Of a stretch of DNA of 64,000 bases, positions 9,220 to 50,612 are shown in pieces. The stretch comes from a virus (Duplodnaviria; Heunggongvirae; Uroviricota; Caudoviricetes). The stretch is from the IMG/VR virus record IMGVR_UViG_3300006204_000001; one strand, written 5' to 3'. The notes below the pieces were generated by a model, which was not told the origin of the DNA, made no database searches, and was given only the letters and a program-made list of their open reading frames with translations. The first letter of the stretch is position 1. Each line of letters starts with the position of its first letter. The translations under genes and the position numbers were made by a program.

Positions 9220-9312
9220 ATATTTTTCCTCCTATGAAGTATTTTAAGTATATATTTTTCTTATAACTATAGAATATATAATTACATTAAATAGAAAGGA
9301 AGTAAATTAATT

Positions 9313-19200: not shown

Positions 19201-21490
19201 TAGATCTTGGTCTTTTTATCCATCTATCAGAATAATCATAATCATCCATTATTTTTACTATATAATCAAAATAAGATGGTATCCATGTTTTATTAAGATA
19301 CATTTCATAATTAGTAATTCTTTTATATCCTAAAAATTTTTCATTGATACTTTCTTCTAATTTAGATATAGCATCATCAAAAGGAAATTCATAATGTTCA
19401 CTTTTTAAATATGTAGCTATACCTAATTTGAAATATGGATCCATTGTTTCTAAAAATAATTTGTTAAATCTTTCATATGAAGGATTATCAATTATATACT
19501 CTATAATTTGCCATCTAGTATTCGTTGTTAATAATCCTTTATATATAGATTTTATTCCCATCCAATAGAATTTTTCCATAAAAATATCTCTATAAACTGA
19601 TACTTGATCAAAATGATATTCTTCTATATCGTTATCCCATATAGGAGATGATTCTATAATATCTCTATATTGATCTAATACATTCATAGTATCATTATAA
19701 AAGAAAAATGATTTAAAAATTCTATTCAGAGTAGGTTCTTTTTCTTTTCCATCTCTGAGTAAATATACATCAGGAAAATGATTTTCTACTATCAAAGGTG
19801 ATGGTCTCCATACTTTATCATCAGGGAAATATTCAAATGTCCAAAAATCGCTATTTTCTATAGGTCTTTGAAATCTAACTTTATCTTTATAAAAATCTTT
19901 TTCTTCCCATAATACTTTTTTACTCATAGAATGAATAATATTTACCATATAATAGCTATCAGCTAGTTCTCTAGGTATAAATATACATGGTGATATCATG
20001 AACCAAAAATCAGATTTACCATCTACTATATTATCAGTAGGAAATCTATCTAATAAATCACTTGAGCTTCCTTCATTTCTTAATTGATCCATAGCTATTA
20101 TAAATCTTTTATAGAATTTTTCATATTCTTGATCATATTCTATCAATAATACATCTAATAAATCATGATCAGCTTGATGTATTTTTTCCATTATATCTAA
20201 TAATTTATCAATATAATCATTAAATCTATTATCTGCTATATTATCCTCTAATAAATAGAATCTAAATTCTTCTATTATATCAGCACCTTTAATAGTTAAA
20301 TCTCTAAGATTATTTATATAATCTACTAAGGATTCATATGGTTCTTCAAATTCTACAAAAGCATCTGATAATACTATGGGTCTAATAATTTTAGTCCATC
20401 CATCAAACTTTTCTTTCATGTGACCATTAATATCAACATAAACTTGTTTATTAGTATCATTCTTATTAATTTTTGCATGTTGTACTATATAATTTTTCAT
20501 TGTTGATACTGGTTGAAAATTAGGTTGATATGGTCTATATATAACATCTGTAGGTAATAATACTGGATATTCATGAAAGTATTTAGGTACCATTATAGAC
20601 ATCCATAAATATTCTTTCGCTTCTGAATTAATAATTTTTTTATTAAAATCACTAATAGAATTTAAATTAATATATCCATCCTTTATATTTAAAAATTCTA
20701 AATTATCGCCTAATGCATCTATATATTCTGCATTATCATTTCTTTCATTAATATCAGCAATTCTATTAATAGCTACCATAATTTTATCAACATTAGTAAT
20801 TCTACTATCATTAATATAATTTATAGGTAACAACCAATTCCATTGATTATTACATAATTCTCTACTAATTTTTATTCTACATGAAAAATTAGTATCGAAT
20901 TTATAGATATAAACAGGATAATTATTTTTTACCCAATGATCGTAATAATCAAATCTTATAGTAACTTCATGATCATCTATTCGTAATAAATATTCTGAAT
21001 ATATTCTTTTATTAATAAATAATAAACATGCAAATTTGAATATATCCCAATTATTTAGTATATCCTGAATATCTATCCATTTTCTATAAAACTGTGATAA
21101 TTTAAATTTATCACGTTGAGATGGTGGTATAAATTGATCTATAGGAATCACAAAATCACATATATTTACATTTTCTAATAGATTTAAATCTTTCATTCTA
21201 CCATTCCATTGATAAAAATTACAACTATCATGATTACTTGCTTTTAGTTTATGACTATTATTCAAATAAATATCTTTTAAAGTATTTCTTAATGCTTCTT
21301 CATTAAAAGAATTATTCAATACAGCTTCATTTCTAAATATAGATGATCTACTACCATCTTTATCAGGTATATGATATCCTTGTTCTATAATATCATTTGT
21401 ATTGAATAATTGAGTAGCAGTAGAAGTATATTTATCAAATGCTTCACTATACCATTTTGGATCAAATGGACTCCATCTGTCTCTATCCAT
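13274..21490 (-). CDS. giant hypothetical protein (2738 aa), probable virion/structural protein
   Basis: 8.2-kb uninterrupted ORF with strong codon-bias consistency; no catalytic motifs recognised (no DxDGD, no Walker motifs). Confidence 0.7.
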   Translation of the reverse strand: MDRDRWSPFDPKWYSEAFDKYTSTATQLFNTNDIIEQGYHIPDKDGSRSSIFRNEAVLNNSFNEEALRNTLKDIYLNNSHKLKASNHDSCNFYQWNGRMKDLNLLENVNICDFVIPIDQFIPPSQRDKFKLSQFYRKWIDIQDILNNWDIFKFACLLFINKRIYSEYLLRIDDHEVTIRFDYYDHWVKNNYPVYIYKFDTNFSCRIKISRELCNNQWNWLLPINYINDSRITNVDKIMVAINRIADINERNDNAEYIDALGDNLEFLNIKDGYINLNSISDFNKKIINSEAKEYLWMSIMVPKYFHEYPVLLPTDVIYRPYQPNFQPVSTMKNYIVQHAKINKNDTNKQVYVDINGHMKEKFDGWTKIIRPIVLSDAFVEFEEPYESLVDYINNLRDLTIKGADIIEEFRFYLLEDNIADNRFNDYIDKLLDIMEKIHQADHDLLDVLLIEYDQEYEKFYKRFIIAMDQLRNEGSSSDLLDRFPTDNIVDGKSDFWFMISPCIFIPRELADSYYMVNIIHSMSKKVLWEEKDFYKDKVRFQRPIENSDFWTFEYFPDDKVWRPSPLIVENHFPDVYLLRDGKEKEPTLNRIFKSFFFYNDTMNVLDQYRDIIESSPIWDNDIEEYHFDQVSVYRDIFMEKFYWMGIKSIYKGLLTTNTRWQIIEYIIDNPSYERFNKLFLETMDPYFKLGIATYLKSEHYEFPFDDAISKLEESINEKFLGYKRITNYEMYLNKTWIPSYFDYIVKIMDDYDYSDRWIKRPRSTFDIKRFLPILQQTQIDIKNELREINLIIKWILEMLDRESYNLNISNITDLKEYVSIMENNMKEVIDNTANLDLDIYSIDDINIIIRLLSLHKTLTDAINGMQMNIYNDTIEKKVYIQKRMDIENIVTSIIELKLHIDHMSDIIQTFDMEKFMKVTNDLETYFVYNKVNLNDKSLLGHINQFNDPWSVDVKEKRNKLFQSTAILYGNFDSEKSYTYEEIDEFLTSLDNVMTDTIEFKDSINNFYEKFDYEVDKTVIDRLDQISYMLYNDFIVIIERYKGYREELLECINTIETLLSELEKYNISDTEKSYLSTILADLSKIIYALSYIAGINNAKDANNAYDDIQNNISKWMEFINTEESVFLSIIDFTNPENKYLINIEEINKTLTVLMEYMDSVNIEYKPDIQCPTYSDIYEIDKIEMVSGGFKHQEGDYVFIKNLGTYQIDSIENNICIASSISEVNYRTTSFRDPCWQQYIYDSITSGDGMGIMIKAISSKHTVIINDEIVDQIIMSIKNGLYLIRKNLKSYNSYNNNTFEHDLKTLSDIETKWSNILDDFGTHISNNSKQYVDQLIQPLSGLIESCNRFMERRNHITIGELLSQINEFIKDIYKYANNNDLVNKDFIYYSDKFKLIRNKLSEFYGNGTTWENGKKLSDILTEVNLGIVFYKENVLDIFEINPDIENFIDEFNNIIKFISFIKSEIISIPSTISTMIDPTIERLEKNIKNKPELQKDKWYMFHKAGIAESGIGYRVGDIVEIIPQLPTDKNGNEIHDMEDIILNDVILLQVMKVEYGEVVEVEPMMNYAIPYLIWGIRETITRVGIGNGLKIDAYSYEIGIGDMTYFNPLKADILTLPQFNENDLFMYKFENIHDLNIKYDVFLGGNQITNYIHRHFTIDELAENHMQPRGIDAIYINANQLMELQKSKLDITNSHSFIYRLDRLDVKDPGAGYAVGQNIYVDVGEFAIKLRVTELDGTPFKGIKEVALINENINIDESTDCNEAKVINDTLNNIDDEFHNCKYDLLPQEGITKPATSSFANITITTKRYTDTESGDRNEKFLYPDVSIPGPTDKTTYGDSDEGWYQGSRIDNSVSNTKDERVWNGIQNVIPPSDNIISDEKRLPPNQPLKGEYQSIVRQRIHNSEGETNNLTNKKYHNGSILNSAMTKGDITVATYNDIPKHINDYPGIKVGKVVIVLTDETNNSHRTLYTVRTFSPNGYIVYDLPEICDMSWNHFLVDWMNIDCYQDYPTMKAQYPSADWRAENTYMNIENSILEGRVIGTSMPKIMNNTSYIKDITVNDISVFNWTKHEWEDLHSEKWELIVTEDIDNKIFNFKLFYYEEGIYSYDMELFLNKTPETLKKNAVLKKDAIFSIKTTIVGEVNKQAIDTLVHTGRHLRIRKLFPYEQTESYTIGFDRNGEFLGYEMDFKIANYMHFKNELHLEDIKVYNRTAGRYEDILDRSLFEVRFKDDKSETQGWETNTRILQSLIGKSGANFHDGPVWCYNSEYDVTVFGIVTADYKKDGHIITFKPIHFINAPEENIALEFNVFQKDFQTEVQMAIIVIEFITEKVEVFGDGYIHNVINPLAPLPKEFKIISQLDLNRPFEYDIILDKTPKRYTFIEPKWLMNPTFHIKNENVPQDRVYILTEKGRFPLINPSTNKPTLHVVNTQNGTDVTFMNLYRRYEHMNICVTPYPMRSVYVKRRIPSHGFINLKGKLNKPLNKKYFEFWVNGKLLHDEVTIITPTKLILHGLKSLKNFEIIEINRDSNEYFSDNFYEVETSTYGRPYYGWDYDTYLDAALECRLGKDNYTEEEQEYLLSPIWKQVSEDHPEFKNYPPNVDIEDDVLLRTNPEDYPINDLENPSYQFLVINQPTLEGKAIVEQTLTFRHFGYIPITNQMLIDIMNEVWGDEINDNPYFPEHTVLTNDDWYGLSTRLYDEYGVLVHILNNAAYHVTGRSMLKINTKNKISRIIPNPVIYDLT

Positions 21491-24950: not shown

Positions 24951-25355
24951 TTAATTTAATAAATCAATTAATAAATTCTGAATTGTAGATGCATAAATAC
25001 CAAAATATTTTATATATTTATCATCTAATATGCTACGATTTAATTCTGATACTATACCTGGAATTATTTTATTATCTTCTTTATATAATAGCAACAAACC
25101 AACATGCTCATCATCTATACCATATTTGAAACTTTTCCATCTGAATTGTATTATGGGATATCTGTGATTATCCCACTCTTCTTGTATACATAATGTAACA
25201 TGTTTCTTTGGTCGTTTCATACTTAATAACCAAATTGGATATTGATCTTTTGGTGTTAATATTAAATTTTGATTTTTATCTTTTTCGCAATTGATACAAA
25301 ATTCTTTTAAATCTTTAAATGTTTTATTTGTTATTACATTATTCATTTTAATCAC
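24951..25355 (-). CDS. hypothetical protein
   Basis: 134-aa ORF, 4-nt overlap with upstream gene. Confidence 0.45.
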   Translation of the reverse strand: MIKMNNVITNKTFKDLKEFCINCEKDKNQNLILTPKDQYPIWLLSMKRPKKHVTLCIQEEWDNHRYPIIQFRWKSFKYGIDDEHVGLLLLYKEDNKIIPGIVSELNRSILDDKYIKYFGIYASTIQNLLIDLLN

Positions 25356-26446
25356 CCTATTAACCCTGGTAAGTTTATTGGAAATTCTAAAAATCTTCTA
25401 TTATTTAAAGATTCCAACGATTGTCTATCTTCTTTATCAACTATTTGCATTTTAATGTTATCTATATCTAATTCAGATAATATTGAATATTGTGTATCTA
25501 TAGAAGTACATTTGAATGCATTCTTGATATCTTCTCTGTATGTTTCAGGAAACAATTGTATTATAGAATCTAATGACTCAAAATCTTTTAATATTACATT
25601 ATTTTCTATACCTTGTTTCAATATTTTCATAAATTTTCCATAACCAAATCCCTTAGCAGATTTAATATTTCGAATTTTACTTCCTTTTATAGATAATAAT
25701 AATCTATAATACATTTCTGAATTAAATATTGATAAATCAAATGGTGATTCATCTTTAACTATGCTTTGTACAGTACAATCTATAGATGATGTTACTTCAA
25801 AATTACCATATTTTCTTTTAATATAAATTACTAAGAAATTTGGATTTAACATATATAATGTATCAAATATATCTCCTGTAATAATAACATTTTTACTATT
25901 AGAAAATGTTGATACTATATATGGTATAATACTACTATCAAAAGTTTTAGATTTTAATAAATAACAATTATTGACATAAGTCAATATTAATTCTAATTCT
26001 GGGATTATAATTTCATTCATTAAATTACCCATACTTTTGAATTGTGGATTAGTCATATATCTATTATGATAAAAATTTCTATAATATTTATTATAAATTT
26101 CCATCTGTTGTTTATTTTCACTTAAATCTGTAAAGTAAAAATATAATTTCACATTACATTTTTCTTTTTGAAAATACATTCTGTAATTAGCCATTAAATT
26201 TAATATAGCCGATTCTAATTCTAATACAACTTGTTGTTTCTTAAATTGAATTAATGTATTTAATCCTTTTTGCATATTGAGATTTCTTAATATACATTCT
26301 AGATTAATAAACACATTTACATCATCACCAGGCAATATTTTATATAGATGATTATGAATATGCTGGTCTAACAGATGCCATTTCAACATAAATGATCCTG
26401 CACTAATACCAATATTCACTTTATAATTTCCTTCCATTAATATCAT
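25352..26446 (-). CDS. hypothetical protein (in primase operon)
   Basis: 364-aa ORF immediately downstream of primase gene. Confidence 0.45.
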   Translation of the reverse strand: MILMEGNYKVNIGISAGSFMLKWHLLDQHIHNHLYKILPGDDVNVFINLECILRNLNMQKGLNTLIQFKKQQVVLELESAILNLMANYRMYFQKEKCNVKLYFYFTDLSENKQQMEIYNKYYRNFYHNRYMTNPQFKSMGNLMNEIIIPELELILTYVNNCYLLKSKTFDSSIIPYIVSTFSNSKNVIITGDIFDTLYMLNPNFLVIYIKRKYGNFEVTSSIDCTVQSIVKDESPFDLSIFNSEMYYRLLLSIKGSKIRNIKSAKGFGYGKFMKILKQGIENNVILKDFESLDSIIQLFPETYREDIKNAFKCTSIDTQYSILSELDIDNIKMQIVDKEDRQSLESLNNRRFLEFPINLPGLIG

Positions 26447-26452
26447 TCCTTT

Positions 26453-27433
26453 CTATAATTGATATTCTAATAATTCTATATTTTCTATTATAGTGCCTAC
26501 ATCTTGATATTTTATATTTTGATATAAATAAATCTTCTTAAAGAAATATTTATATCGTTTTAATAAATATTTAATTCTCTCTGGTTTTATATTGCTATCT
26601 AGATATATCCTAATAATAACATTAGAACCAATTAAACCCTTCATTATCGCAAAATCTATTGCTCCTATATAATCTGATCCTAATGTTGCTATATATGCAC
26701 TATTTATACCAGTATTAAAATTTTTATATACTGATAATATATCGAATAGCCCTTCAGCTATATTTACATAGATATCTTCTATAGTAAATAAATTAAATGT
26801 ATTTTTTATTGTATAAAATATTCTATTATCTAATGAAAATAATGGTGTTTTCTTCCATGGATCATCTTTTTCAAAACCTCTTGTTAGAAGTGTTGATTTA
26901 TCATCAGATAAAAATGATATTGTAAAGTCATTTGAAGGTAATGTATTTTTTGTTTTCTGATCACTAATATATTGAAATAAATTTTCTATCTTCCAAACTA
27001 TTTTAAATTTATCATAATCTTCTATACTTAATCCTTTTCCTAATCTTTTTTCAATATATCTTATTTGAGGAGAATCTATTATTGGTGTACCTGTAATAAT
27101 TTCAATATTAGAATCTTTTATACTTTTAATTTTTGAATATCGTTGATTTTTCATTTCTTTAATATATTTACTTTTAACACCTATTCTTTCCATAAATTCT
27201 CTATCTACTTTACCTTTAGCTCCACAATTTGCTAAAAAACAATTATAAAGTATTGGCTCATTTGGATTATCTAAATCACATTTTAAATATAAATGCATAT
27301 CTTTTGGATCATCTTGTTTATCACCACAAAATGGACATCTCATTCTATATCTTATTATACTAACTTTTTTGAAAGGTTGACAATTTTTTTCTATCTCATT
27401 TATTAAATTTATTTTTAATTCTCTATTATCCAT
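26453..27433 (-). CDS. DnaG-type DNA primase (zinc-binding domain + TOPRIM)
   Basis: CPFCGDKQ..(x28)..YNCFLANCGAKG matches DnaG zinc ribbon CPFH.E...YHCFGCGA.G; TOPRIM-like AEGLFDIL; start chosen at MDNRELK with AGGAGG RBS. Confidence 0.65.
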   Translation of the reverse strand: MDNRELKINLINEIEKNCQPFKKVSIIRYRMRCPFCGDKQDDPKDMHLYLKCDLDNPNEPILYNCFLANCGAKGKVDREFMERIGVKSKYIKEMKNQRYSKIKSIKDSNIEIITGTPIIDSPQIRYIEKRLGKGLSIEDYDKFKIVWKIENLFQYISDQKTKNTLPSNDFTISFLSDDKSTLLTRGFEKDDPWKKTPLFSLDNRIFYTIKNTFNLFTIEDIYVNIAEGLFDILSVYKNFNTGINSAYIATLGSDYIGAIDFAIMKGLIGSNVIIRIYLDSNIKPERIKYLLKRYKYFFKKIYLYQNIKYQDVGTIIENIELLEYQL

Positions 27434-27557
27434 TATACTATTATTTCCTCCTATTGCATCTATTATAAATATAATATATAATTTAAGATTATATATTATT
27501 ACAATATAACGTATAATTATATACAATATTAATATTAAATTTAGGAGGTACTTAGTA

Positions 27558-28724
27558 ATGAAAAATGTAATGTTGATTGGTGTTGGTAACTGTGGATCTC
27601 AGGTTGCTTGTTTAGGAGAAAAATTATATCCTACCTTATTTGATGCAATGTATATTAATACAAGTAAAACTGATCTTTCTATGGTAACTGCAGAATCTGA
27701 ACTTAAATACAAAATTGGTTCAGATGAAGATGTTGAAGGTTCTGGTAAAAATAGAACTAAGATGCAAGAATATCTTGAGAAAGATATTGAAAAGATCTTA
27801 GGCGATGAAAAACTTGAAGATTCTATAATTGATAAGAGTTATGCATTTATTATTACAAGTGCAGCGGGGGGGACAGGATCTGGTGCTTCAACAATTCTTT
27901 ATGAATTTATGAAAGAAAAATTTCCTGATACATTCTTTATCTTAGTAGGTGTATTACCAAAACTTGATTCAACATCATTAATGGAACATGGTAATACATT
28001 AGAGTTTCTTGATGATCTTTATAGAGTATTAGGAGATAATGTAACATATATGCTATATGATAATGAATCAACTGCAAATATGGCAGATACAGTTGCATTA
28101 GAAACAGTTAACAGAAATATTATTGAGGATATTAGAATTCTTACAGGCATTGATAATCATCCTACACCATATGAATCTATTGATAAAGCAGATATGGAAT
28201 CTATAATTACAACACCAGGAAGATTACTTGTTGCAAGAATTAATAAGAATCTTACAGAAAAGAATCTTGAAGATAATAATATTGATAATATTGTTATTAA
28301 AGCAATTAAAGATTCTTGCCATGTTGAGACAGATCGTAATAAACATGTTGTTAGATGGGGTATAATCACATATTTTACAAATGAAGTATATCAGCTGTAC
28401 AAATCATCTTTAACTGCAGTAACAGAATTTTTAGGAATACCTAAAGAAAGATTTAATCATAATGCAATTAATAATAAGGATGAATCATTGTCATTTATGT
28501 ATATGATTGCATCCGGTTTGTCACCTATTAATGATAGGGTAAAGAAAATTACATCAAGAGTAGAATCATTACAAAAGACTTTACCATCTGAAGATACTAA
28601 CAAATATATTCTTGGAGAAGGTGTTTCATATGGAATAATGGAAGAAAGAAGAAAACAGGTAAGAAGAGAAGCTGCTCCATCTGAAATTAATAAAAGTTCA
28701 GTATTTAATAAATTTAAGAAATAA
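27558..28724 (+). CDS. tubulin/FtsZ-superfamily GTPase (phage PhuZ/TubZ-like)
   Basis: N-terminal LIGVGNCGSQVA glycine loop and tubulin signature SAAGGTGSGAS (GGGTGSG); RBS TAGGAGGT. Confidence 0.8.
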   Translation: MKNVMLIGVGNCGSQVACLGEKLYPTLFDAMYINTSKTDLSMVTAESELKYKIGSDEDVEGSGKNRTKMQEYLEKDIEKILGDEKLEDSIIDKSYAFIITSAAGGTGSGASTILYEFMKEKFPDTFFILVGVLPKLDSTSLMEHGNTLEFLDDLYRVLGDNVTYMLYDNESTANMADTVALETVNRNIIEDIRILTGIDNHPTPYESIDKADMESIITTPGRLLVARINKNLTEKNLEDNNIDNIVIKAIKDSCHVETDRNKHVVRWGIITYFTNEVYQLYKSSLTAVTEFLGIPKERFNHNAINNKDESLSFMYMIASGLSPINDRVKKITSRVESLQKTLPSEDTNKYILGEGVSYGIMEERRKQVRREAAPSEINKSSVFNKFKK

Positions 28725-28772: not shown

Positions 28773-28802
28773 TGTATGAATAAAATAAAAAGGAGAGAAG
28801 AG

Positions 28803-31178
28803 ATGTTAAAAACAATTGAGAATGCTGTAAAGGGTTATGTTGCTAATAAAATAGTTAAAACAGTATTAACCCCATTAGACACAATAGTAGATCAAAATAT
28901 AATGGATGTAACAACTACTATTGGATCATTTATCGTTAGAAGCGTACGAGGAAAATTTCAAAGGTCTATAACATTTACAATCGGAAATCATTATGCAGAT
29001 AGATGGATGGAAGAAGCTTTATATGGTATTTTGTATAAATACAACAATATCAAAGGTTCCTCTAGATTAGAATTAACTAATAAAGCTGGTATGTCTGATG
29101 GAACTGGAATTTATTATAGACTGGATGATGGTACACATAATCTCAAATATAGAGATTATAATATTTTATTAGGTATATCAACAAGTACTACTCCACTGAC
29201 ATCTGGAAGATCAACACAAGCAAGAATTTATACAGTGATAACTTACGATTTAGATCCAAAATTTATGGAACTATTTGAAAAAGATATGATAGAACACAGA
29301 AATTCTTTATTACAAATAAAGAAGGATAGCCCAGTGGTAAATGTTTATAAAGATTATCATGAATCTGATGGTTATACTTACTGGGAAAAAATGATGACTA
29401 TAAATAAAAGAAAAATAGGTACGGTTTATCTTCCTTATGATCAGAAAAAGAAGTTAGTGGATACCATCAATAATTTCTTTAGTAATAAGGAATATTATAA
29501 AGAACATGGAGTTGCTCATAATCTCAAGATACTTCTTTATGGACCTCCTGGACCACAGCCTGAATCAACTAACATTCCTAATCCAGATGGATGGGATAAA
29601 TTAATGAAAGATTTTAAACCTGGGGACAAAATATTTACAGAAGATGGTTCAATAACAGAAATAGAAGATATAAGAAAATATGAACCTATGGATGTATATA
29701 AAATATATTTTTCAGATGGATCATTTACAAGATGTGCATTGACTCATAGATGGAATATTATACAAAAAGATGGCTCAATTGTTGATAATTCTGTTGAAGA
29801 TATTATTAATTATCTTGGTACTACTAAAGATAATATAACAACATTTGATAATGATTTGTATGTACCAATGGGAGCAGAAGTTCAATATGATCATTCTACT
29901 AATTATAAAAATCTACATCCATATGTTATTGGAATATTAGCTATATGTGGAAGATTTATTGGTAATAATACTAATAAAAAAGTTTGCATTAATACAACTG
30001 AATCTGAAATTTTATATTATTTAAGACAATATTTCCCGTTAGATATATATTTTGAAAAATATGATGATAACAATAATTGGATCATGATGAATAATTGCAA
30101 TCCAGTTTATTTGGATGAATTATTAAAAATAATTCCTCCTGGAATGGTTGTATATAATAATTCAGATGGTTGTGAAACGATTCCATCTAATTATTTATAT
30201 GATGATATTATGACCAGATCTGAATTATTATCTGGAATAATGGATACAACAATTACTGATATAATTAAAACTGATTTGCAAACAATTTTAACATTATCAT
30301 TTCCAACACCAAATTTATGTTTAAGTACTAAACGGTTGATGAATAGTTTAGGAGTTAGACCAACCTTTGTTGATGCTACTACATTAACAGTTGTATGTAA
30401 TTCAAAGGTTTATTCATTTATAAAATATAGCAGTAAAAAGAAATTAATAACTCTTAAATACGATTTAACAATTCCTAATTATGTAAGGAATGCATCATGC
30501 GAATCTGATTCTGTAGTAAAAATTGAACGCATTGAGAAAACAAATGAACAGGAAGCTATGATATGTTTTCATGTCAAAGATGAATCTCATACCTATATTA
30601 CGGAAAATTTTATTTCTACTTGTAATACAGGTAAAGATTCTATTGCAAAAATGATTGCATCAGAATGGAATAGAAATATTTACTATATTACAGGTGGTAA
30701 AGATGGTAACTTTATTCCAAATGCAATTACAGATTCTGATACAGATGATATTAATTACCCATTAATGTTAATATCAGATATTGATAAATATCCAATGTTT
30801 ATCACGGAACCAAAAGATCTTGATGAAAATAGTGATTCTGGCAAAGCAGAAAAAGTTGCTTGGAAACAAAAATTTGGATCTATGATAAATGCCTTAGATG
30901 GAATACTGTCAGGCGAGGATAGAATTATTATAATGACAACTAATCACATTGAAAAGTTTTCTGAAACATTTAGAAGACCAGGTAGAATCGATTTGGAATT
31001 ATTAATTGATTATGTAACTCCAGAGGTATTTAGGAAATTTATATATGATAATTTTAATTATGAATTACCTAAAGATATTAAATTAAAAGATGACAAATTA
31101 ACTATTGCTAAAGTTCAATTTGATATTATGTTCCAAAAGATGACAGTAGAAGAAATTATAAAGAAATATATAAAATAA
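28803..31178 (+). CDS. BCS1-like AAA+ ATPase precursor containing a 358-aa intein-like insertion in the Walker A loop
   Basis: FFSNKEYYKEHGVAHNLKILLYGPPG | insert | TGKDSIAKMIASEW ; sensor-1 IIIMTTNH; SRH box RPGRIDLEL; RBS AAAGGAGAGAAGAG. Confidence 0.75.
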   Translation: MLKTIENAVKGYVANKIVKTVLTPLDTIVDQNIMDVTTTIGSFIVRSVRGKFQRSITFTIGNHYADRWMEEALYGILYKYNNIKGSSRLELTNKAGMSDGTGIYYRLDDGTHNLKYRDYNILLGISTSTTPLTSGRSTQARIYTVITYDLDPKFMELFEKDMIEHRNSLLQIKKDSPVVNVYKDYHESDGYTYWEKMMTINKRKIGTVYLPYDQKKKLVDTINNFFSNKEYYKEHGVAHNLKILLYGPPGPQPESTNIPNPDGWDKLMKDFKPGDKIFTEDGSITEIEDIRKYEPMDVYKIYFSDGSFTRCALTHRWNIIQKDGSIVDNSVEDIINYLGTTKDNITTFDNDLYVPMGAEVQYDHSTNYKNLHPYVIGILAICGRFIGNNTNKKVCINTTESEILYYLRQYFPLDIYFEKYDDNNNWIMMNNCNPVYLDELLKIIPPGMVVYNNSDGCETIPSNYLYDDIMTRSELLSGIMDTTITDIIKTDLQTILTLSFPTPNLCLSTKRLMNSLGVRPTFVDATTLTVVCNSKVYSFIKYSSKKKLITLKYDLTIPNYVRNASCESDSVVKIERIEKTNEQEAMICFHVKDESHTYITENFISTCNTGKDSIAKMIASEWNRNIYYITGGKDGNFIPNAITDSDTDDINYPLMLISDIDKYPMFITEPKDLDENSDSGKAEKVAWKQKFGSMINALDGILSGEDRIIIMTTNHIEKFSETFRRPGRIDLELLIDYVTPEVFRKFIYDNFNYELPKDIKLKDDKLTIAKVQFDIMFQKMTVEEIIKKYIK
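29553..30626 (+). mobile_element. intein-like (Hint + degenerate LAGLIDADG) element, in-frame
   Basis: Block-A-like DKIFTEDGSITEIEDI, block B CALTHRW, LAGLIDADG-like YVIGILAICGRF, C-terminal ..HTYITENFISTCN followed by Thr; exact restoration of GPPGTGKDS on removal. Confidence 0.55.
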
Positions 31179-31226: not shown

Positions 31227-31394
31227 ATGCCTGGTTTAGTTTTAGCAGTTATAATTGGAGCTATAATAATTTGGTTCACTATATCATTTGCTTTTCCTAC
31301 TATAGGAAAATTCTGTAAATCTATGTGGGAAAATGCAGTTGGTATTGATGAAAATAAAAATGAAAAAGGAGAAAAAGAAAATGAAGAAAAGTAG
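31227..31394 (+). CDS. small single-TM membrane protein (55 aa)
   Basis: MPGLVLAVIIGAIIIWFTISFAF..; RBS AAAGGAT; overlaps start of next gene. Confidence 0.35.
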   Translation: MPGLVLAVIIGAIIIWFTISFAFPTIGKFCKSMWENAVGIDENKNEKGEKENEEK

Positions 31395-31695
31395 TAAAAT
31401 TGTAGGAGCTTATTTTACAGGAATAATTATTATTATTGCATTAATTTTCATGCATATATGTTTATCAAGAGTTCCTACAGGATATTGTGGAGTTGTATAC
31501 TCTATCAATGGTGGTGTAACAGGTAAAGTTGTTGATCAAGGTTGGCATTGGCATGGTATCGGAGAAAGAATTACTAATTATTCCATTGGAATAGAGCAGT
31601 CATATTTAACTGCTACAAATAATGGTGATTCTCCTGAGAATGATAGTTTCTCGGCTCCATCCTCAGATGGTAAAGGTTTACACAGATGGAATTAA
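31381..31695 (+). CDS. SPFH/band-7 (stomatin/HflKC-like) protein, N-terminal part (TM + start of band-7 domain)
   Basis: TM helix IVGAYFTGIIIIIALIFMHI then band-7-like ..VPTGYCGVVYSINGG..; frame ends at 31695. Confidence 0.55.
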   Translation: MKKSSKIVGAYFTGIIIIIALIFMHICLSRVPTGYCGVVYSINGGVTGKVVDQGWHWHGIGERITNYSIGIEQSYLTATNNGDSPENDSFSAPSSDGKGLHRWN

Positions 31696-32330
31696 CATTT
31701 ACATATCGATTTGATAGGACAAGAATATCTGATACCTTTACAAGATTTAAAGGATTGAGTGGTCAAGAAGTATTAACAACATTTATCAAACCAAATGTTA
31801 TTTCTTGGACTAAAGAAATTACTGCAAAATATCCTGTTACTGAAATATTAGGTGATAAACGTGCTGATCTTAATATTGTGCTAACTGATTATCTCAGAGA
31901 AAAATTTGATTCATATGGTATTATAATTGATTCAGCCATGTTAATCAATATTGAACCTGATGAAGAGATAAAAGCAGCAATTCAGAAAAAGATTACTGCT
32001 CAGCAAGAACTTGAACTTGCTAAGGTACAAGCAGAAACAGCAAGGATAGATGCAGAGAAAGAAAAAGAAGTAGCTTTAATTGAAGCTGAAAAGAATAAGG
32101 AGACTGCATCTATTAATGCAGAAAAAGTTAAAATTGAAGCACAGGGTAAAGCAGATGCTAAACGTATTGCTGCTGAGGCAGAAGCAGAAGCAAATGTTAA
32201 GATTGCTCAATCATTAACACCTGAATTGATTGAGAAAATTAAATATGAACATTGGGATGGAAAACTTCCATATGTTCAAGGAAGTTCATCATCTATTATT
32301 GATATGAAAGATTTCAATGAAGGAGACTAA
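31686..32330 (+). CDS. SPFH/band-7 protein, C-terminal part (continues in another frame) with coiled-coil AEAEAEA tail
   Basis: LTFTYRFD..PNVISWTKEITAKYP..DSYGIIIDSAMLINIEPDEE then ELELAKVQAETARIDAEKEKE coiled coil, typical HflK/C and flotillin architecture. Confidence 0.55.
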   Translation: MELTFTYRFDRTRISDTFTRFKGLSGQEVLTTFIKPNVISWTKEITAKYPVTEILGDKRADLNIVLTDYLREKFDSYGIIIDSAMLINIEPDEEIKAAIQKKITAQQELELAKVQAETARIDAEKEKEVALIEAEKNKETASINAEKVKIEAQGKADAKRIAAEAEAEANVKIAQSLTPELIEKIKYEHWDGKLPYVQGSSSSIIDMKDFNEGD

Positions 32331-32539: not shown

Positions 32540-35500
32540 ATGAGTAATACTATTAATGAAAAAACAACTTCATTATCATTTCTAAAACAAGCGGCTAATG
32601 TTATTACAAATGGATCTATTAGTTATATAAATAAAGTAATGCCCAATACTACAGATACACTCAAAGAAGCAAAAGCTACAGTTAATGAGGTAACATCTAC
32701 ATTTAGTAATACAACTGGCAATGTATTTCCTATATTGAGAAAATTAAAATCTCAAATTAGTTATAAAGGAATACTTAATTGGTTTTATGAGAAAGAAGAT
32801 TCATTTGATTCTGGAGTTGATATACCATCATCATATGATGATGGTAGTGATTTTGAAATGGCTGAGGTTCAAATAAATCAATCAGAAAAAAATGCTAAAG
32901 AAATTTCACAAACTATAGTTGAATCAAGTAGACATATGGTAGAAAGTGAAATTGCATCTACGGCAAATCTTACTCATACTATATCTGCTCAAACAGCAGT
33001 TATTACTTCTGGATTTGATTCAGTTAATAAAAATCTTGAAAATATAGCAGAAATAATATCAAAAAATACATCCGCTATTATAGAATTACAAACAGCAAGT
33101 TCTAAAGTAGAATTGATAAGCAGAACTCAAACAGATGCTGACGAATCACGTAAAAGAATGCAATCGGGTAAATTTAATTTATCTGATTATAAAGCTATAT
33201 TGAAGGATAATTTTGCTAATAGTGAATTAGGTCTTTCTTTAGGTACAGCATCTGGATTACTTAGTAATAGTGGAATGATTAAAGATCTTCTTTCTCCAAC
33301 TAATCTATTATCAGTTGGAATAAGTAAAGCTGTTGATAAAGCATCACCTAATTTTAGAAAAAATGCAAAGGCATTAGATGATGCCATTAGTGAAACTATA
33401 ATGACTTCATTAATTAGATTAGGAGAAAGTAAAAAGGAAGTATTTGGAGTTAATCTTGGTAAAATATTTGGTATTGATTCATCAAGAGAAAAAATTGATA
33501 CTAGCAGGCAAACATTAGAATTACATGCTACACCATTTGATACATTAACTAAAGATACTATTAATAGTGGTATCACTGGTTATCTTAGAAAGATTTTAGT
33601 TGCTGTAGGTGGTGATGATGTAATTTATGATGCTAGAAGTCGTAGCTTTAAAACACAAAAACAATTGAAAAAAGAATATAGAGCAGAATCCATTAATACA
33701 AGTGCTTTATATCAAGCTACTGACAGAGTAAAACAAAATCTTGGTAATGAAGATTTTACTAAGATGATGTATTCTTTAATGATGAATGATTTAAGTAACA
33801 GAACTGGTCCTAATGGTAATGCTAGAAATCAAATAAATCAATTTAAAAATTTTGATGTTACTTATGATTATCTTAAATCATTATTAGGTAATAATGCAAC
33901 TTCTACTGATCTCGATAATATCAAGGTATTAGCAAAACGATTAGGAAGACTACCAACTGGTTATGGCGAGCAAGACATCATGAATCAAGCTGCTAGAGAA
34001 GCAATAAAAAGAAATAATAAAATGAAAGAATATGTTATCAATGCTGATAATTACGGAGTTGATTTATCTTTCATTAATGATAGTACAAAAGCTGATGCTA
34101 ATACAATAAAGAAGACATTTGGTAGATCAGATATAGAAATTAAAAATTCACCCAGTAGAATTTCTACTTTAACGAATATTGATTATACTTATAAAGCTTT
34201 ATATGAAATATATAGAAGGCTTAATAAAGGTATTAATGTATTTAAGGTAGGAGAGAATAATAGAAGATCTAAACCATATACTGATTGGAAAGATAATTAT
34301 CTTTCCAAACCCTCTGGATATAAATCCAAAACTATAAATGATGCTGATACAACTACCAATGGTATTTTAGCAAATATGGGTCGATTAGATGATGGACCTA
34401 ATCAATTGAGAAATAATACATTGGAAGATGGAACTACCGAAGAGTTGACTGGTGGACAAAGATTCTCCAGATGGGGTAAACAACGGGGTGGGGAATTTAT
34501 CAAAGCTATGTTCTCAGGTAATCCTGGTGATGTGAAACGAGTATTTGGAAATATTATACAGGATGTATCAGGAGTAGCTAGTGACAAAATAAAATCTCAA
34601 GCAAATAAAGTTAATGATAAATACGGTAATGCATCTGGTTATCTTAAACATAAACTATTTGGAACATCATATAGATATACTAATGATGAAGGCAAGGAAG
34701 TTGAAATAGAAAAAAATGATAAAGGTGGTTATGCTGGATTTATTAAAAAGAAATTATTTGGTAAATTAGGTGATACAAATAATTCTGTACAAAAATGGTT
34801 TAAGGATGTAGCTGGATATTTTGATTATGGTAATAAAGAAGATAAAAAGAACGGTGTTGAATCAAAAAGAAAGAAACTTATATCAACATCTATAGGTGCA
34901 CTTGGAGGTGGTTTATTAGCTGGACCATTAGGTGTATTAATGGGATCAATGGCTGGATCAGCATTCTCAAATTTTAATATTGGCGATAAATTCAAAGAGA
35001 AATTATTTGGTAGGGATGATAATGGTAAAGCTAAAGGTTTATTAACTAAAGTATTTGATAAAATGACAAGGCCCATTACTTATCAAATTAAGAAGACAAC
35101 TAATTATTTTGGTAATGTATTAAAGAAAAATATATTTGGACCATTATCAGATTTAGGTTTTGCTATGAGAGAAAGAATGTTACATCATGTAGATGGATTA
35201 ATGAAGAAAACTATGAATTTTATTAAGAATTCTTTCATAGGTAAAGCATTCAGTGCTGCTAAAAAGAAAGTTGGAGGTGCAGTAAAAACAGGAGCCAAAA
35301 AAGTATTTGGTGGTTTAGGTAATCTATTATATGGAGGCTCAGTAGGTACATTAGGTTTGGCTGCTAGGCAAACTTTAAATGCGAATACATTACTACCTAG
35401 AGCTGGTTTAAATGGTTTATCAAATTTATTGGTTCATAATACAGGTACTTATGAAGTTGATCCAGATACTGGTGAACGTGTATGGGTATCAGGAAAAGAT

Positions 35501-38500
35501 AAACTAAAACAACGTAGAGAAGAACGTAATGCATCAATTAAACGTGATATGGATCGTTATAGTTTATTTGGTGGATATGCCGAATATAATAGAGAACTAG
35601 ATGCAAAACATGCTACAAATAAGAATGAATTAGAGCAATATATAGCTGAAGGAACTCCTAAGATTGTAGAAAATACAGAACAAACAAATGAAATCTTAGA
35701 TAATCTAACTGATGTAAATAGGGAATCAAATGAAGCTTTACAAAATTTAGATCGTAATAGTAGCGAGGTTGGTTCTCTATTTACACATGATCAAGGTATT
35801 CATGATAAATTAGATAAATTATATGCATTCTTAACTGGTAATACATCTACTAATAAACCAAGTAATACTCCTGAAGGTCATTATAAATCAGATAAAAAGG
35901 CAGATGATGATAGTTTAAAGAATGCATTAGAAAATAAATCATCCAAAGCACCTACTTTAATAGGTGGAGGAAATCAATCTGACCCTATATTAGGTAGCGC
36001 TCTAGGTTCAATTTCTACTATTGCAGCTAATAACGGATTATCTAATGATGAGGCACAAACTACAAATGAGACTATAGCTGAATTATCTAAAGATAAACCT
36101 AATAAAAATTCCATATCAGCTAAATTACAGAAGATTATTAATATTAATAAAACAAAATCGGATGAGGATGATAAAGATAAAAAAAAGAAAAAATCTTTAT
36201 TCTGGGATATATTAGGAAAGATTGGTAATTTTGCAGGAGGATTTCTTGATAAACTTCCTTTAATTTTAGGAGGTATTGCTGCATTTAAACTATTTTGTGG
36301 TGATTTTGAAGGTGTAAAGGATGTTGTTAGTAGAATTGGTAATGGTATAGATTCTATAGCTAGCTTTATTACAGGAAAATCAAAGGATGATGGCACAACA
36401 GCAGGAATGAATGCAGTAACATCATTAGCAGATATACAATCAGATAGTCCAATGAGTTATGCTATACCTGGAGCTGAATTATATCATAATGAACGAGATT
36501 GTGCAGGTAACAGAATTAGAAATCAAAATGCTACTAAAGCAAAGAATACTATTCTTATTGGAGCTAATCTAAAGAATGCTTTTATGAATAAATGGCATGG
36601 TACTAATAATTCTAGTTTTACATCTACAATGGCTAGAACTAGAGCTAGTATATCAGGTAGAATTAATAACATTTCGTCTAGTGTTTATAATAAACTTGAT
36701 AATAGTGTATTAGGTAAATTTGGATTAGGAAGAAAAATAAAGAATAAAGCAAGTAAGATTAGAGATAATAGTGCAGCGGCACAAGCTAATCAAGATCAGA
36801 TTGCAAATAACAATGTTACTACAGTAGATAATTTGAAATCTAGAGTAGGAACTGCAGCTAGCTTAAGTTTCTTATCAGGAGCTGCTGGTTTAGGAGCTAA
36901 AGGCATTGCTAAAGCATTTGGTAGAGATGAAGAGTCTCAAGACAGATGGAGTAGAATTGGTTCAGGTGGTACTGCATTAGTATTAACAGCTAATCATGGT
37001 ATGTCTAAACTTACTGGAAAGAAATCATTAATTGATTTATTCAAAGAATTAGTAAGTAAGTTATTTAAATACTTAGCTGGAAAATTTAAAGAAAATGGTA
37101 TACTTAAAAAATGTGCATCTAAGGTAGATGATATCTTTACTGGATTAGATACAAAAATATTTACTGGTCTTAAAGATAAGATGATAGATATTGTATCTAA
37201 GAAATTATTAGAGTTAGGAGTAGTATCAAGTGGTGAACAAGCATTATCTGCAGCTACATTAGGTATACCAATTGTAGTTGGTGGCATTAGTGGTTTTATA
37301 GATGGTATATGTGGAGTAGAACATTTGTTCAGTGTACTTCCAGGTGATGCAGATGGAACTATGAAAACGATATCTATCTTATTAAATACTGCATTAGGTG
37401 CAGCCGCATTTGTACCAGGTGTTGGTTATGCTGTAGCTTGTATTGATATTATTGATGCTATTATGTCAGCTATTCCTGTATTTAAAGGAAAAGGTTTAAC
37501 ACAATATTTAGCTGAGCTTTTATATAATATTATCAATGGAGCAAAGAATTTAGTTACTGGAAAGAAAGGTAATAAATTAAAAGAAGCACATGCTGAAGTT
37601 ACAAGAAACACAAAGGCTTATAATGAAAAATTTGGTACTAACTTAAGTGAATCTGATATTATTGATGCTACGACTAATAAAGGTTGGTGGGATGCTTTAT
37701 GGCATGGTAAAGCGTATAAAGGTGATAATGGTTTACTTGTTACTGATAGAGCTGGAAATTTCCTTGGAAAAGGTGGTATTACTAATGCTTTATTTGGTAA
37801 TAACAAAATATATGAAAGTGATACCGAAGGCAATGTCTTAAAGAATCAATATGGAGAAGCTGTAGTTAAAACTGATAAATACGGTCTCGGATCATACAAA
37901 AATAATATGAAGATCGGTGACTATGCTAAGTTTGGATTTAATTCAGCTAAACGTTTCTTTACAGGTGGTGAAGTATATAAGACTGATGAAAAAGGAAATG
38001 TCATATATGATGAAAATGGTAATCCAATTGTAGATCATAAGGAATCAAATATCTTTACGAGAGTATTTAAAGAAAAGAAATTTTTAGATGAAGCTACAAC
38101 ACAGTCTATCAACACTACTAAAAGTTTTATCAAGAATATATTTAAGAAAGAAACAATTAAAGATGAGAATGGAAATGAAATTCTTGATGAAAATGGTAAA
38201 CCTATAGAAAGAAGTAAAGCTGGAAATGTTATTGTTAAAGCTACTAATGTTATTAATGGTGCATTATTCGGAGGAGTAGGAGGTGTATTTAAAGCTCTTA
38301 AGAAGAATGAAAAAGAGCAATATGAATTAGACGAAAATGGTAAACCGTTATTAGATGCAGATGGTAACAAAGTTAAGAAAGGAACACTTGGTTCTGTAAT
38401 TACTAAAGGATTAGGTAAGATAGGAAATACAGCATTATCATTCTTAACTGGTGGAGCATTAAAAGATACTGAGTTAGTTAAAAGTGTTAAAAATAGTAAA

Positions 38501-49691: not shown

Positions 49692-50612
49692 GTGGATGGA
49701 TTATTTATTAGAAGTCTACTTATGGCATTCTTCTTTAGAGTATTACCAGAAATTATTTTGGATGGTAGATTATATATAGCAGAACCACCTCTATATAGAG
49801 TTGATAATCCAAAAGATCCATTTGTAATTAATAAAGAAGATTATAACAATCGATATGTAAAAGAGTGTATGAAATATTATCAGATAGGATATCCTATTAT
49901 AGATAATGGAGTAATAGTTGACGTTAATATTTTAAATAAAAATGATATTAAAGAATTATTATCTGATACATCATCTTATGTTAAAGACATAGAATTATTA
50001 GCTAATCATTATAGGATTAATGAAAGATTATTTGAGATAATAATTGAAGAAGTAGCATTAATGAATATCGATGTCAATTTATGTGCAGATATACAGAAGG
50101 ATATTATTGATAAAATCAATATACAACATCTTGTGACAAGAATACAAGCAGAATTTCCAGAAGTATATTATGATGACAAATTTAAGTTAATACGAGGATC
50201 AATAAATACTGTTAGACAATTAATTGAATTATCACCTAACATAATTAAGAAGTCTAAAGTAATAATTAATTATATTATAAAATGGAAAACTGCACAGACT
50301 AAATTAGTATTAAGAGATAATAAAACAAAAGCAGAAAGATTATTATCATTATTAGAATTATTAAAAGTTTTAAGAAAATATCAACCTGATATCAAGCATC
50401 GTTTTAAAGGTTTAGGCGAGAATGATACAGATGATATACGAAAGACTATTATGGATCCTAATACTAGATCACTTATAAAAGTAAATATAAGTGATATAGA
50501 AAATGATGAAAAAATCTTTCAGATGTTAAGGGGTGGAACTGCACAAAATGCATTAGATAGAAAAAATATGATGCATAATTATAGTATACCAGTCGAGTTA
50601 ATTGATACGTAA
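49692..50612 (+). CDS. type II DNA topoisomerase ATPase subunit, exon 2
   Basis: VDGLFIRSLLMAFFFRVLPEIILDGRLYIAEPPLYRV ~ GyrB [37 protein letters not shown]. Confidence 0.8.
   Translation: MDGLFIRSLLMAFFFRVLPEIILDGRLYIAEPPLYRVDNPKDPFVINKEDYNNRYVKECMKYYQIGYPIIDNGVIVDVNILNKNDIKELLSDTSSYVKDIELLANHYRINERLFEIIIEEVALMNIDVNLCADIQKDIIDKINIQHLVTRIQAEFPEVYYDDKFKLIRGSINTVRQLIELSPNIIKKSKVIINYIIKWKTAQTKLVLRDNKTKAERLLSLLELLKVLRKYQPDIKHRFKGLGENDTDDIRKTIMDPNTRSLIKVNISDIENDEKIFQMLRGGTAQNALDRKNMMHNYSIPVELIDT

Follow-up and report, generated by a model that had tools for sequence, protein, structure and literature searches.

The gene at positions 27558-28724 (plus strand, stop codon included) of the window, the 64-kb stretch of phage DNA analysed here, encodes a tubulin/FtsZ-superfamily GTPase of the phage and plasmid TubZ-PhuZ kind. 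Profile score, predicted fold and tail indicate that it groups with c-st TubZ and phage G gp138 and not with phiKZ-type PhuZ. The reading that we favour, with modest confidence, is that the protein forms an early-expressed, GTP-driven filament of the TubZ class which would position replicating phage DNA without a TubR-centromere adaptor. The open reading frame starts with ATG, specifies 388 residues and is preceded by an AGGAGG ribosome-binding site (27543-27548, plus strand). Its product matched Pfam PF00091 (Tubulin/FtsZ) over residues 4-175 with 49.7 bits (E 6.9e-13; cut-off 33 bits), and the tubulin membership proposed in an earlier note on this DNA was thus borne out by a profile search that did not lead to a non-tubulin GTPase family. 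The top sequence match in the PDB was c-st TubZ (E 5e-11). In the protein database 326 homologues were found, the best 120 of the 326 being full length and 58-66% identical, and 1020 clusters of a 50%-identity library matched the protein at E<=1e-3. Among deposited phages relatives were few: tblastn against 50,697 phage records at E<=10 returned only phage G and the Clostridium botulinum phages c-st and D-1873, a megablast of 20 kb of the window against deposited phages gave no match, and an NCBIfam search returned no name for the protein. Short open reading frames of 53-90 aa are nested on the opposite strand of the gene, and we treated them as mechanical. The gene remains a divergent member of an already known kind of protein, with a function that we infer.

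The glycine-rich N-terminal loop and the tubulin/FtsZ signature quoted in the earlier note are both present, at residues 7-17 and 101-111. The first is the T1 nucleotide-binding loop IGVGNCGSQVA (27576-27608, plus strand), in which G8, G10, N11, G13 and Q15 are invariant among 27 aligned family members; residues 8-15 read GVGNCGSQ, and the counterparts of the loop in the alignment are GVGGGGGN in FtsZ and PIGQGGGN in c-st TubZ. The second is the T4 loop SAAGGTGSGAS (27858-27890, plus strand), where S101, A103 and G104-G109 are invariant in the same 27 members and AGGTGSG (residues 103-109) fits what we take to be the tubulin signature, [SAG]GGTG[SA]G. The occurrence of these signature motifs is far above chance expectation. 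The T6 region YDNE (residues 167-170; 28056-28067, plus strand) aligned with LDNN of c-st TubZ, IDNE of phage G and IPND of FtsZ, its Y167, D168 and N169 being invariant across the 27 members. Likewise, the T7 loop with the start of helix H8, ESIDKADME (residues 206-214; 28173-28199, plus strand), aligned with NVDFADV of FtsZ, VVDEDEI of c-st TubZ and SLDLMDI of PhuZ, with E206, S207, I208, D209, A211, D212 and E214 invariant in the family alignment. This loop falls between helices 177-195 and 210-217 of an AF2 model, and by alignment D209 and D212, a D-x-x-D pair, are the T7 acidic residues with which one subunit would complete the GTPase site of the next. The protein has thus retained all GTP-binding loops together with the catalytic T7 Asp pair. 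The model (pLDDT 79, pTM 0.83) adopts the two-domain tubulin fold, with predicted nucleotide-binding and activation domains joined by helix H7. Foldseek against the PDB gave a probability of 1.00 to TubZ, CetZ and FtsZ, with 1104 chains at E<=1e-3; the best fold matches were c-st TubZ (TM 0.70 for the query, 0.88 for the target, with an rmsd of 2.8), B. cereus TubZ, B. thuringiensis TubZ and CetZ. With these three loops and the Asp-x-x-Asp pair of T7 intact, the protein would bind GTP and hydrolyse it only within a polymer, and it would assemble head-to-tail into dynamic GTP-consuming (cytomotive) filaments. Since the T1, T4, T6 and T7 elements are all kept, cytomotive filament assembly is the most likely activity.

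The earlier note had called the gene PhuZ/TubZ-like and had suggested a phage with a spindle or a nucleus-like compartment, and in its full form this account holds that a PhuZ-like spindle keeps a phage nucleus with a chimallin shell centred and rotating. PhuZ of the phiKZ-like Chimalliviridae is also a phage tubulin of jumbo phages carrying multisubunit RNA polymerases (msRNAPs), and a role in placing the phage DNA or nucleus during lytic infection has been reported for it. In favour of such a spindle, phrog_4733, 'tubulin PhuZ', was the second-best PHROG match of the protein (E 8e-11), but that match spans only the shared GTPase domain and is outranked by an unnamed PHROG. A family HMM scored phage G gp138 highest of six reference proteins (83 bits), ahead of c-st TubZ (66 bits), Bt TubZ (18), E. 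coli FtsZ (15) and phiKZ PhuZ, which reached only 10 bits, and 1-2 bits in pairwise comparison. None of the 50 best PDB fold matches was a PhuZ, and PhuZ models reached TM 0.52-0.58 (BFVD) against 0.70-0.88 for TubZ. The earlier note had proposed a phylogeny against PhuZ, TubZ and FtsZ as a check: a neighbour-joining tree placed c-st TubZ and phage G within the family radiation, with PhuZ and Bt TubZ falling outside, but bootstrap values were only 27-36% (36 of 100 for the grouping with c-st TubZ that excludes PhuZ, Bt TubZ and FtsZ), and this placement is therefore not relied on.

Closer comparison with c-st TubZ (CST189; PDB 3V3T, 4XCQ) showed that the N-terminal 148 residues are 32% identical and that both proteins have AGGTGSG in T4 and D-x-x-D in T7; over the whole structural alignment identity is only about 19%. 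Gp138 of Bacillus phage G, described as 'putative FtsZ-like', is a jumbo-phage protein as well and is 24.8% identical over 87% of the query (tblastn), but it comes from a separate phage lineage. The TubZ proteins of pBtoxis and B. cereus have the fold in common with ours at TM 0.65-0.70, and Bacillus plasmid TubZ also has a tail for partner binding (PMC3678025).

The C-terminal region strengthens the likeness to c-st TubZ. Residues 343-388 (28584-28721, plus strand) make up a tail that is predicted to be flexible, residues 343-364 having pLDDT below 50 in the AF2 model; it carries a basic patch, RRKQVRR, and a net charge of +3. It terminates in the tip peptide SSVFNKFKK (28695-28721, plus strand; family consensus NDIFKKFMK), which corresponds to the tip NDFFSKYM of c-st TubZ. 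The tip motif was found in 109 of 120 close homologues and in 49 of 118 diverse cluster representatives, as against 0.64% of control windows, an enrichment of about 65-fold or more. In c-st TubZ the tip touches the next subunit and docks partner proteins (PMC5322520). Both proteins thus have a long flexible tail with a tip of one type, whereas the tail of c-st TubZ is acidic and that of our protein mildly basic. By analogy, a disordered linker of ~25 residues would lead to a conserved hydrophobic-basic tip, which may contact the next filament subunit and dock the partner or cargo. The tail bears on the PhuZ account too: in PhuZ an acidic C-terminal knuckle drives polymerisation (PMC3678025), and the protein studied here has, in place of such a knuckle, a mildly basic tail with a hydrophobic tip. 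It bears equally on the idea that the protein is a decoy or antagonist of host FtsZ, blocking or redirecting host cell division. The two proteins belong to one superfamily, and 12 of the 118 cluster representatives of the wider family terminate in an FtsZ-like IPDFL peptide, but the tip of the present clade is unlike the FtsZ peptide DIPAFLR that binds FtsA/ZipA; moreover the NCBIfam ftsZ model (TIGR00065) did not match the protein and the family HMM gave E. coli FtsZ only the 15 bits noted above. We consider an FtsZ decoy very improbable.

The DNA upstream of the gene carries an element, TATATATTAT-N6-A, that faces the tubulin gene (27490-27506, plus strand), its first core base lying 68 nt before the ATG. 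The core of this element is identical to the 10-nt core in the consensus for AR9 early promoters, AAATATATATTAT-N6-G (PMC5312081); the predicted start base is A, versus G in AR9, and the RNAP subunits are only ~25-32% identical to those of AR9. A second copy of the motif stands back-to-back with the first and faces the primase gene (27464-27480, minus strand). In the window each strand of the spacer between the primase and tubulin genes carries the element, and so does each strand in all 15 related loci checked, allowing at most one mismatch; elements of this type are enriched in intergenic DNA. As this AR9-type early promoter is paired with that of the primase gene, transcription at the start of infection is probable. 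On the favoured reading, the injected virion RNA polymerase would transcribe the tubulin gene, along with replication genes, as soon as lytic infection begins.

The divergent neighbour (26453-27434, minus strand) encodes a DNA primase (phrog_19847, E 2e-16). Its true start is probably the ATG at 27434, which has AGGAGG ahead of it, and not the TTG at 27526; the primases of relatives are 313-333 aa long. Next to it lies a conserved gene matching phrog_26916 (25352-26446, minus strand), which in relatives is always beside the primase. Downstream of the tubulin gene and co-directional with it is a gene for a BCS1-like classical AAA+ ATPase (28776-31178, plus strand; Pfam AAA, PDB BCS1 E 2e-15), split by an intein-like insertion (29553-30626) for which a homologue search with the insertion alone found nothing. 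The order phrog_26916-primase-tubulin-AAA+ is kept in 22 loci, the contigs reaching 292 kb. The earlier note had offered the surrounding genes as candidate compartment components, and this did not find support: SPFH and the others had no detectable homologue near the tubulin gene in relatives, and the AAA+ protein, BCS1-like and bearing the intein-like insertion, is a neighbour of the tubulin only in the close clade, adjoining it in 22 of 22 close-clade loci and in none of 11 distant ones. Because the adjacency is confined to the close clade, shared synteny is inseparable from function, and on that ground we did not retain the AAA+ protein as a functional partner of the tubulin.

It might be argued from this neighbourhood that the protein is a RepX-like replication factor, which organises or initiates phage DNA replication and is not a transport motor. 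RepX of pXO1 and TubZ of pBtoxis were first identified as replication genes. Here the tubulin and primase genes have a divergent early promoter region in common, and the tubulin gene lies in a block that includes helicase, PolB and topoisomerase genes; but a neighbourhood by itself is a weak argument, and no DNA-binding region was evident in the protein except the short basic patch of the tail. We find such a role improbable in its strict form, and it overlaps the favoured reading of a DNA-positioning filament rather than excluding it.

The same gene order is relevant to whether the protein works as the motor of a type III (TubZRC) partition system, segregating the phage genome as a plasmid-like episome while the phage is in a carrier state or in pseudolysogeny; such a role has been proposed for c-st. 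The closest solved relative is indeed c-st TubZ, and the partner-docking tip is common to both. PBS1-type phages are known for pseudolysogeny. In distant relatives an ORF of 90-98 aa abuts the tubulin start at the position of TubR: we found it in a Bacillus plasmid, a Cetobacterium plasmid, phage G (gp137, 98 aa and TubR-like) and a further locus (L040), and three of these ORFs are weakly similar to TubR. However, the gene for c-st TubZ belongs to a tubR-tubZ-tubY operon that, together with a centromere, is carried by a plasmid prophage (PMC7950403), whereas here the gene is flanked by the divergent primase upstream and the AAA+ gene downstream in a jumbo phage with an msRNAP. Type III partition requires TubR and tubC, and neither was found in the window. 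When the TubR proteins of c-st and Bt and six upstream ORFs of relatives, eight queries in all, were compared by phmmer with window ORFs of at least 40 aa, nothing convincing emerged, the best match (E 0.023) being a 73-aa ORF that lies within the topoisomerase gene on its opposite strand. Two repeat finders detected no tandem or direct-repeat array between 21 and 33 kb in the window, and no iterons or centromere array near the tubulin gene, and the single AT-rich imperfect inverted repeat close by is made up of the two promoters. The promoter is of a lytic early type, and integrase, ParA/ParB and repressor domains were not found in the window. A partition motor is unlikely on this evidence, and a DNA-positioning filament acting without TubR continues to be the reading we prefer.

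Regarding the phage itself, the split msRNAP reported in the earlier note is real, with one part at 1206-2681 (minus strand) matching phrog_2986 and another at 58916-61069 (plus strand) matching phrog_3015. The best matches of RNAP beta, beta' and PolB were to LPJP1, PBS1/AR9, S6-like phages, BpSp and phiR1-37; E values against AR9-type phages ran from 1e-27 to 1e-59, compared with 1e-8 to 1e-19, or about half coverage, against Chimalliviridae. AR9-like phages are placed outside Chimalliviridae (2026 review). Relatives of the locus were found on viral contigs 165-292 kb in length that also carry msRNAP and virion genes. The phage is an uncultured jumbo phage of ~260-290 kb, and its enzymes of transcription and replication most resemble those of the AR9/PBS1/S6/phiR1-37 group. 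There were no tRNA genes in the 64-kb window, and hence no host clue.

This lineage weighs on the nucleus spindle from both sides. In favour of such a spindle, this is a jumbo phage whose multisubunit RNAP is split, and tubulin and msRNAP are reported to co-occur in jumbo phages (PMC7824862), but the RNAP and PolB proteins point to AR9-type phages, outside Chimalliviridae. The partner of PhuZ, chimallin, was not detected in the window either: Pfam PF25677 matched no window ORF of at least 100 aa, although phiKZ chimallin itself scores 1122 bits with this model; phmmer with phiKZ chimallin (gp54) against the window ORFs gave nothing; and the window contains no unannotated ORF of ~600 aa. Chimallin was accordingly set aside as a product of the window, in agreement with the earlier note, which had recognised no shell protein. 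The chimallin and TubR searches cover the 64-kb window, about a fifth of a ~290-kb genome, and the remainder may hold a centromere or encode an adaptor like TubR or a divergent shell protein. Taken with the HMM scores, fold and tail, these results make a PhuZ-type nucleus spindle quite unlikely.

Thus we return to the favoured reading, a TubZ-class filament made early in infection. We infer that the protein would polymerise, and that its filaments would place or shift the phage DNA as it replicates, or the replication factory, within the cell, with the tail tip as the probable site of attachment. A more ambitious version, which we put forward as speculative and hold to be unlikely as a whole, is that TubZ was uncoupled from TubR and its centromere, was adopted for early lytic use by an AR9-like clade that apparently lacks chimallin, and together with the AAA+ protein organises a shell-less replication factory, so that a phage spindle would have arisen a second time, independently. 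In such a factory the adjacent BCS1-like AAA+ protein would be a candidate remodeller that engages the tubulin tail in the manner of katanin, which acts on tubulin tails.

To our knowledge, phage tubulins have been studied in two settings only, plasmid-prophage partition by c-st TubZ and the nucleus spindle formed by PhuZ in Chimalliviridae, and we know of no test of the function of phage G gp138. The gene described here represents a large uncultured clade, in which a TubZ-type tubulin occurs in an apparently lytic AR9-like jumbo phage. What makes the clade distinctive is that, in searches of the window, this TubZ-type tubulin stands without a TubR adaptor or a detected shell protein, and the conserved C-terminal tip provides a concrete handle for tracing its cargo. 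If the protein does organise replication, cytoskeletal control of infection in jumbo phages would be wider than the nucleus-forming family.

The gene at 27558-28724 on the plus strand begins with an ATG, has the ribosome-binding site AGGAGG 9 nt 5' of it, and encodes 388 amino acids, the stop codon being included in these coordinates. The earlier note had read it as a tubulin gene on two motifs and this is borne out, as the ORF is exact, IGVGNCGSQVA (T1) occupies residues 7-17, SAAGGTGSGAS (T4) occupies residues 101-111 and includes AGGTGSG, which we take to match the tubulin signature, and the Pfam Tubulin/FtsZ GTPase domain (PF00091), whose curated cut-off is 33, is matched with 49.7 bits (E 6.9e-13). 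Among PHROG families the top match was an unnamed family (1.8e-12), followed by phrog_4733 'tubulin PhuZ' (8e-11). The motif match is confirmed as not due to chance. When the protein was aligned with 26 homologues of 58-66% identity, all nucleotide-contacting elements were found to be invariant, namely G8, G10, N11, G13 and Q15 in T1, S101, A103 and G104-G109 in T4, Y167, D168 and N169 in T6, and E206, S207, I208, D209, A211, D212 and E214 in T7/H8. In a wider alignment D209-x-x-D212 falls on FtsZ NVDFADV, c-st TubZ (the partition tubulin of Clostridium botulinum phage c-st) VVDEDEI, Bt TubZ TYDPSDL and PhuZ SLDLMDI. In the protofilament these T7 residues are what one subunit contributes to the GTPase site of the next. 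An AlphaFold2 model built from the 26-homologue alignment (pLDDT 79, pTM 0.83) showed low confidence only at the T7 loop (202-206) and a linker (343-364), which is followed by two short C-terminal helices.

We then compared the protein with the known tubulin subtypes. Foldseek placed c-st TubZ first among PDB folds (TM 0.70 by query and 0.88 by target, rmsd 2.8), followed by B. cereus TubZ, CetZ and B. thuringiensis TubZ, with FtsZ entries ranking lower and no PhuZ entry among the top 50. The leading BFVD matches were two uncultured-phage 'cell division' proteins (TM 0.73-0.75), and PhuZ models there reached TM of only 0.52-0.58. By sequence the closest solved relative is again c-st TubZ (E 5e-11), then a CetZ and Asgard/eukaryotic tubulins. 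A profile of the protein's own family gave 83 bits to gp138 of Bacillus phage G, 66 to c-st TubZ, 18 to Bt TubZ, 15 to E. coli FtsZ and 10 to phiKZ PhuZ, and tblastn against 50,697 deposited phage records (E<=10) gave matches to phage G and to two C. botulinum phages, c-st and D-1873, and to no others. The phylogeny proposed in the earlier note was run as a neighbour-joining tree, in which the window clade stood at 100% bootstrap, but the deeper arrangement, with c-st TubZ and gp138 within the radiation containing this clade and PhuZ and Bt TubZ outside, received 27-36%; the subtype call therefore rests on profile scores, fold ranking and the C-terminal tail and not on the tree. Overall identity to the nearest named relatives, c-st TubZ and gp138, is 19-25%, rising to 32% with c-st TubZ over the N-terminal 148 residues, and judged from sequence it belongs, as a divergent member, to a known kind of protein. 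Its clade is large and uncultured and, in the databases searched, mostly without names, the few annotations being 'hypothetical protein' or 'cell division GTPase FtsZ', and the wider family comprises 1020 clusters at E<=1e-3.

The tail ends in SSVFNKFKK, the same motif form as the c-st TubZ tip NDFFSKYM and the family consensus NDIFKKFMK. Counting only the last 12-14 residues, such a tip was present in 109 of 120 close homologues and in 49 of the 118 diverse cluster representatives, against a frequency of 0.64% in internal control windows. The c-st tip modulates contact with the upper filament subunit and is where both the TubR-centromere complex and TubY bind (PMC5322520). PhuZ, on the other hand, carries an acidic 'knuckle' (PMC3678025), whereas the present tail is net positive (+3). 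Antagonism of host FtsZ is an unlikely rival reading, E. coli FtsZ itself scoring low against the family profile. Elsewhere in the family, 12 of 118 full-length cluster representatives (library proteins including P0197, P0204, P0218, P0229, P0233, P0237, P0239 and P0264) have IPDFL-type ends, closer to the FtsZ C-terminal peptide (DIPAFLR) than to the TubZ tip, and some of these relatives may engage host FtsA/ZipA-type partners.

The split msRNAP that the earlier note had reported was recovered, at 1206-2681 on the minus strand (phrog_2986, 1e-73) and 58916-61069 on the plus strand (phrog_3015, 4e-53). From it and the tubulin a cytoskeletal spindle or a nucleus-like compartment had been suggested, and a PhuZ-plus-chimallin spindle is the corresponding rival; a nucleus found no support, given PhuZ at 10 bits, the AR9-type RNAP and PolB and the lack of chimallin in the window. 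For the beta' piece, E-values were 1e-30 to 1e-36 with phiR1-37, BpSp, AR9/PBS1 and S6-like Staphylococcus phages and, among the matches listed, ~1e-10 over half the length with phiKZ-type (Aeromonas) phages; the beta piece matches Listeria LPJP1 (7e-59), PBS1 (1e-53) and Fusobacterium JD-Fnp6 (3e-47) versus 1e-8 to 1e-19 for phiKZ-like phages; and PolB matches S6-like phages, AR9/PBS1 and phiR1-37 at ~1e-20 to 1e-31. In a 2026 review AR9-like phages are grouped with the jumbo phages that do not belong to Chimalliviridae (PMC13282480). The Pfam chimallin model PF25677, which gives phiKZ gp54 itself 1122 bits, matched no window ORF of at least 100 aa, phmmer with gp54 matched no window ORF, and no unannotated chimallin-sized ORF occurs in the window. 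With these markers and no chimallin, a phage nucleus is therefore unsupported within the 64 kb seen, about 230 kb of the genome lying outside this view.

Kinship with TubZ also raises a TubZRC-like partition role in pseudolysogeny as a rival. However, the gene 5' of the tubulin is a divergently transcribed primase; TubR of c-st and pBtoxis, together with the small ORFs that immediately precede the tubulin gene in six relatives, found no convincing match among window ORFs of at least 40 aa, the best (E 0.023) being a 73-aa ORF that lies antisense within the topoisomerase gene; and no iteron array was found near the tubulin. On these defining features, as far as the 64-kb window shows, a TubZRC system was rejected. 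In four more distant relatives an ORF of 90-98 aa does abut the tubulin start: phage G gp137 (L007:5689-5985), a B. pumilus plasmid of 124 kb (L041:3696-3992), a Cetobacterium plasmid of 188 kb (L042:3721-3993) and an IMG/VR contig (L040:4759-5046). Three of the four are linked to TubR in a weak similarity network, the E-values coming from a tiny database (the IMG/VR ORF with c-st TubR 1e-5, gp137 with the B. pumilus ORF 2e-7 and with Bt TubR 2e-3), and similarity of the Cetobacterium ORF is marginal only. None of the four is named in the deposited records, and going by sequence type III partition operons may have gone unrecognised on these elements. The window clade is therefore characterized by a TubZ-type tubulin without the TubR-position gene, a combination with an AR9-like msRNAP that we did not find in any deposited phage genome at tblastn sensitivity.

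Twenty-two related loci, on contigs as long as 292 kb (tubulins 52-63% identical), share the block in which the tubulin lies, with a phrog_26916 protein and the primase on one strand and the tubulin and a BCS1-like AAA+ gene (28776-31178, plus strand) on the other. The AAA+ gene is absent from 11 more distant loci, and its adjacency may therefore reflect shared ancestry only. Its Walker A is split by a 358-aa insertion (29553-30626; junctions LLYGPPG/PQPEST and FISTCN/TGKDS), missing in most relatives (427-464 aa), although L017 and L018 (770 aa) have it. The last residue of the insertion is Asn, the next one being Thr, and the insertion contains a block-B H-R-W, a conserved Cys in MICFHV and LAGLIDADG-like blocks (VIGILAICGRF, LLSGIMDT). 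Its only PDB similarities (E 0.03-0.09, residues 6-68 aligned to 6-68) are to 6RIX, 6RIY and 6BS8, short 'Replicative DNA helicase' chains which presumably are mycobacterial DnaB mini-inteins; no Pfam Hint/intein match was obtained and a search with the insertion alone found no homologue. Probably the insertion is an intein of class-3 type that carries a homing endonuclease, its first residue being Pro. The P-loop is unusual or degenerate in many relatives (HSHPAGGKD, HSEAGHGKD, GGHGYGKD), odd loops occurring at L001:11249-12547, L012:11174-12520, L010:11216-12553 and in the window; most have Asp directly after the Lys, canonical GKPGTGKS is seen only in L019, and in some members of the clade the predicted ATPase may be inactive or otherwise atypical.

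Downstream, a 55-aa ORF with a long hydrophobic stretch (31227-31394) precedes an SPFH/Band_7 gene in two overlapping plus-strand ORFs (31333-31695, 31686-32330) that cover profile positions 2-50 and 62-173, which implies a single frameshift near 31686-31695, whether sequencing error, pseudogene or programmed frameshifting. A type II topoisomerase in two pieces (GyrB-like ATPase/Toprim part and C-terminal part) encloses a free-standing HNH endonuclease gene (46925-48505, 48693-49574, 49689-50612, plus strand), which among the relatives L030, L031 and L033 have and L029 lacks, a distribution that fits a mobile element. An ORF at 29-895 (plus strand) matches GIY-YIG and other homing-endonuclease PHROGs (E 2e-9), and with the HNH gene and the intein-like insertion this brings the mobile elements of endonuclease type in the window to at least three. 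A 266-aa ORF (54765-55565, plus strand) pairs a sigma-70 region-4-like helix-turn-helix (residues 72-116, just under the Pfam cut-off) with an RNA polymerase alpha C-terminal domain (residues 160-225, E 3.6e-11), and given this unusual pairing could be a phage transcription factor. Two giant ORFs vary between relatives in placement relative to the tubulin block: one of 2738 aa (13274-21490, minus strand) without Pfam match, and one of 2790 aa (32540-40912, plus strand) with a Peptidase_M23 domain, whose 2736-aa counterpart near the L001 tubulin also has a phage lysozyme domain, and which is probably carried in the virion and serves in cell-wall degradation or ejection.

The primase/tubulin spacer is poorly conserved apart from promoter-like elements. 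In the window and 15 of 15 relatives it carries one TATATATTAT-type element per strand (<=1 mismatch), back-to-back, each followed by six bases and then nearly always A. Strict TATATATT[AC]T occurs 13 times in the window, 10 of these in intergenic DNA (8.4% of the window). With N6-A it lies back-to-back at 27464-27506 and, comparably, at two other divergent gene pairs (6077-6104, 9249-9280; one pair with a looser copy on one strand), and singly at 23042, 40965, 51140 and 63562. The 10-nt core of the TATATATTAT element is identical to that of the experimentally defined AR9 early promoter, AAATATATATTAT-N6-G(+1), used by the injected virion RNAP (PMC5312081). These elements suggest an AR9-like transcription programme, and by analogy the tubulin would be an early gene co-regulated with replication genes. 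A RepX-like replication role is a rival to be weighed beside this putative co-regulation. In the best-supported reading the tubulin, produced at the start of lytic infection, would polymerise head-to-tail into a GTP-dependent cytomotive filament of the TubZ class, its tail tip would stabilise the polymer and recruit a partner, and the filament would position or move the replicating phage DNA or replication factory.
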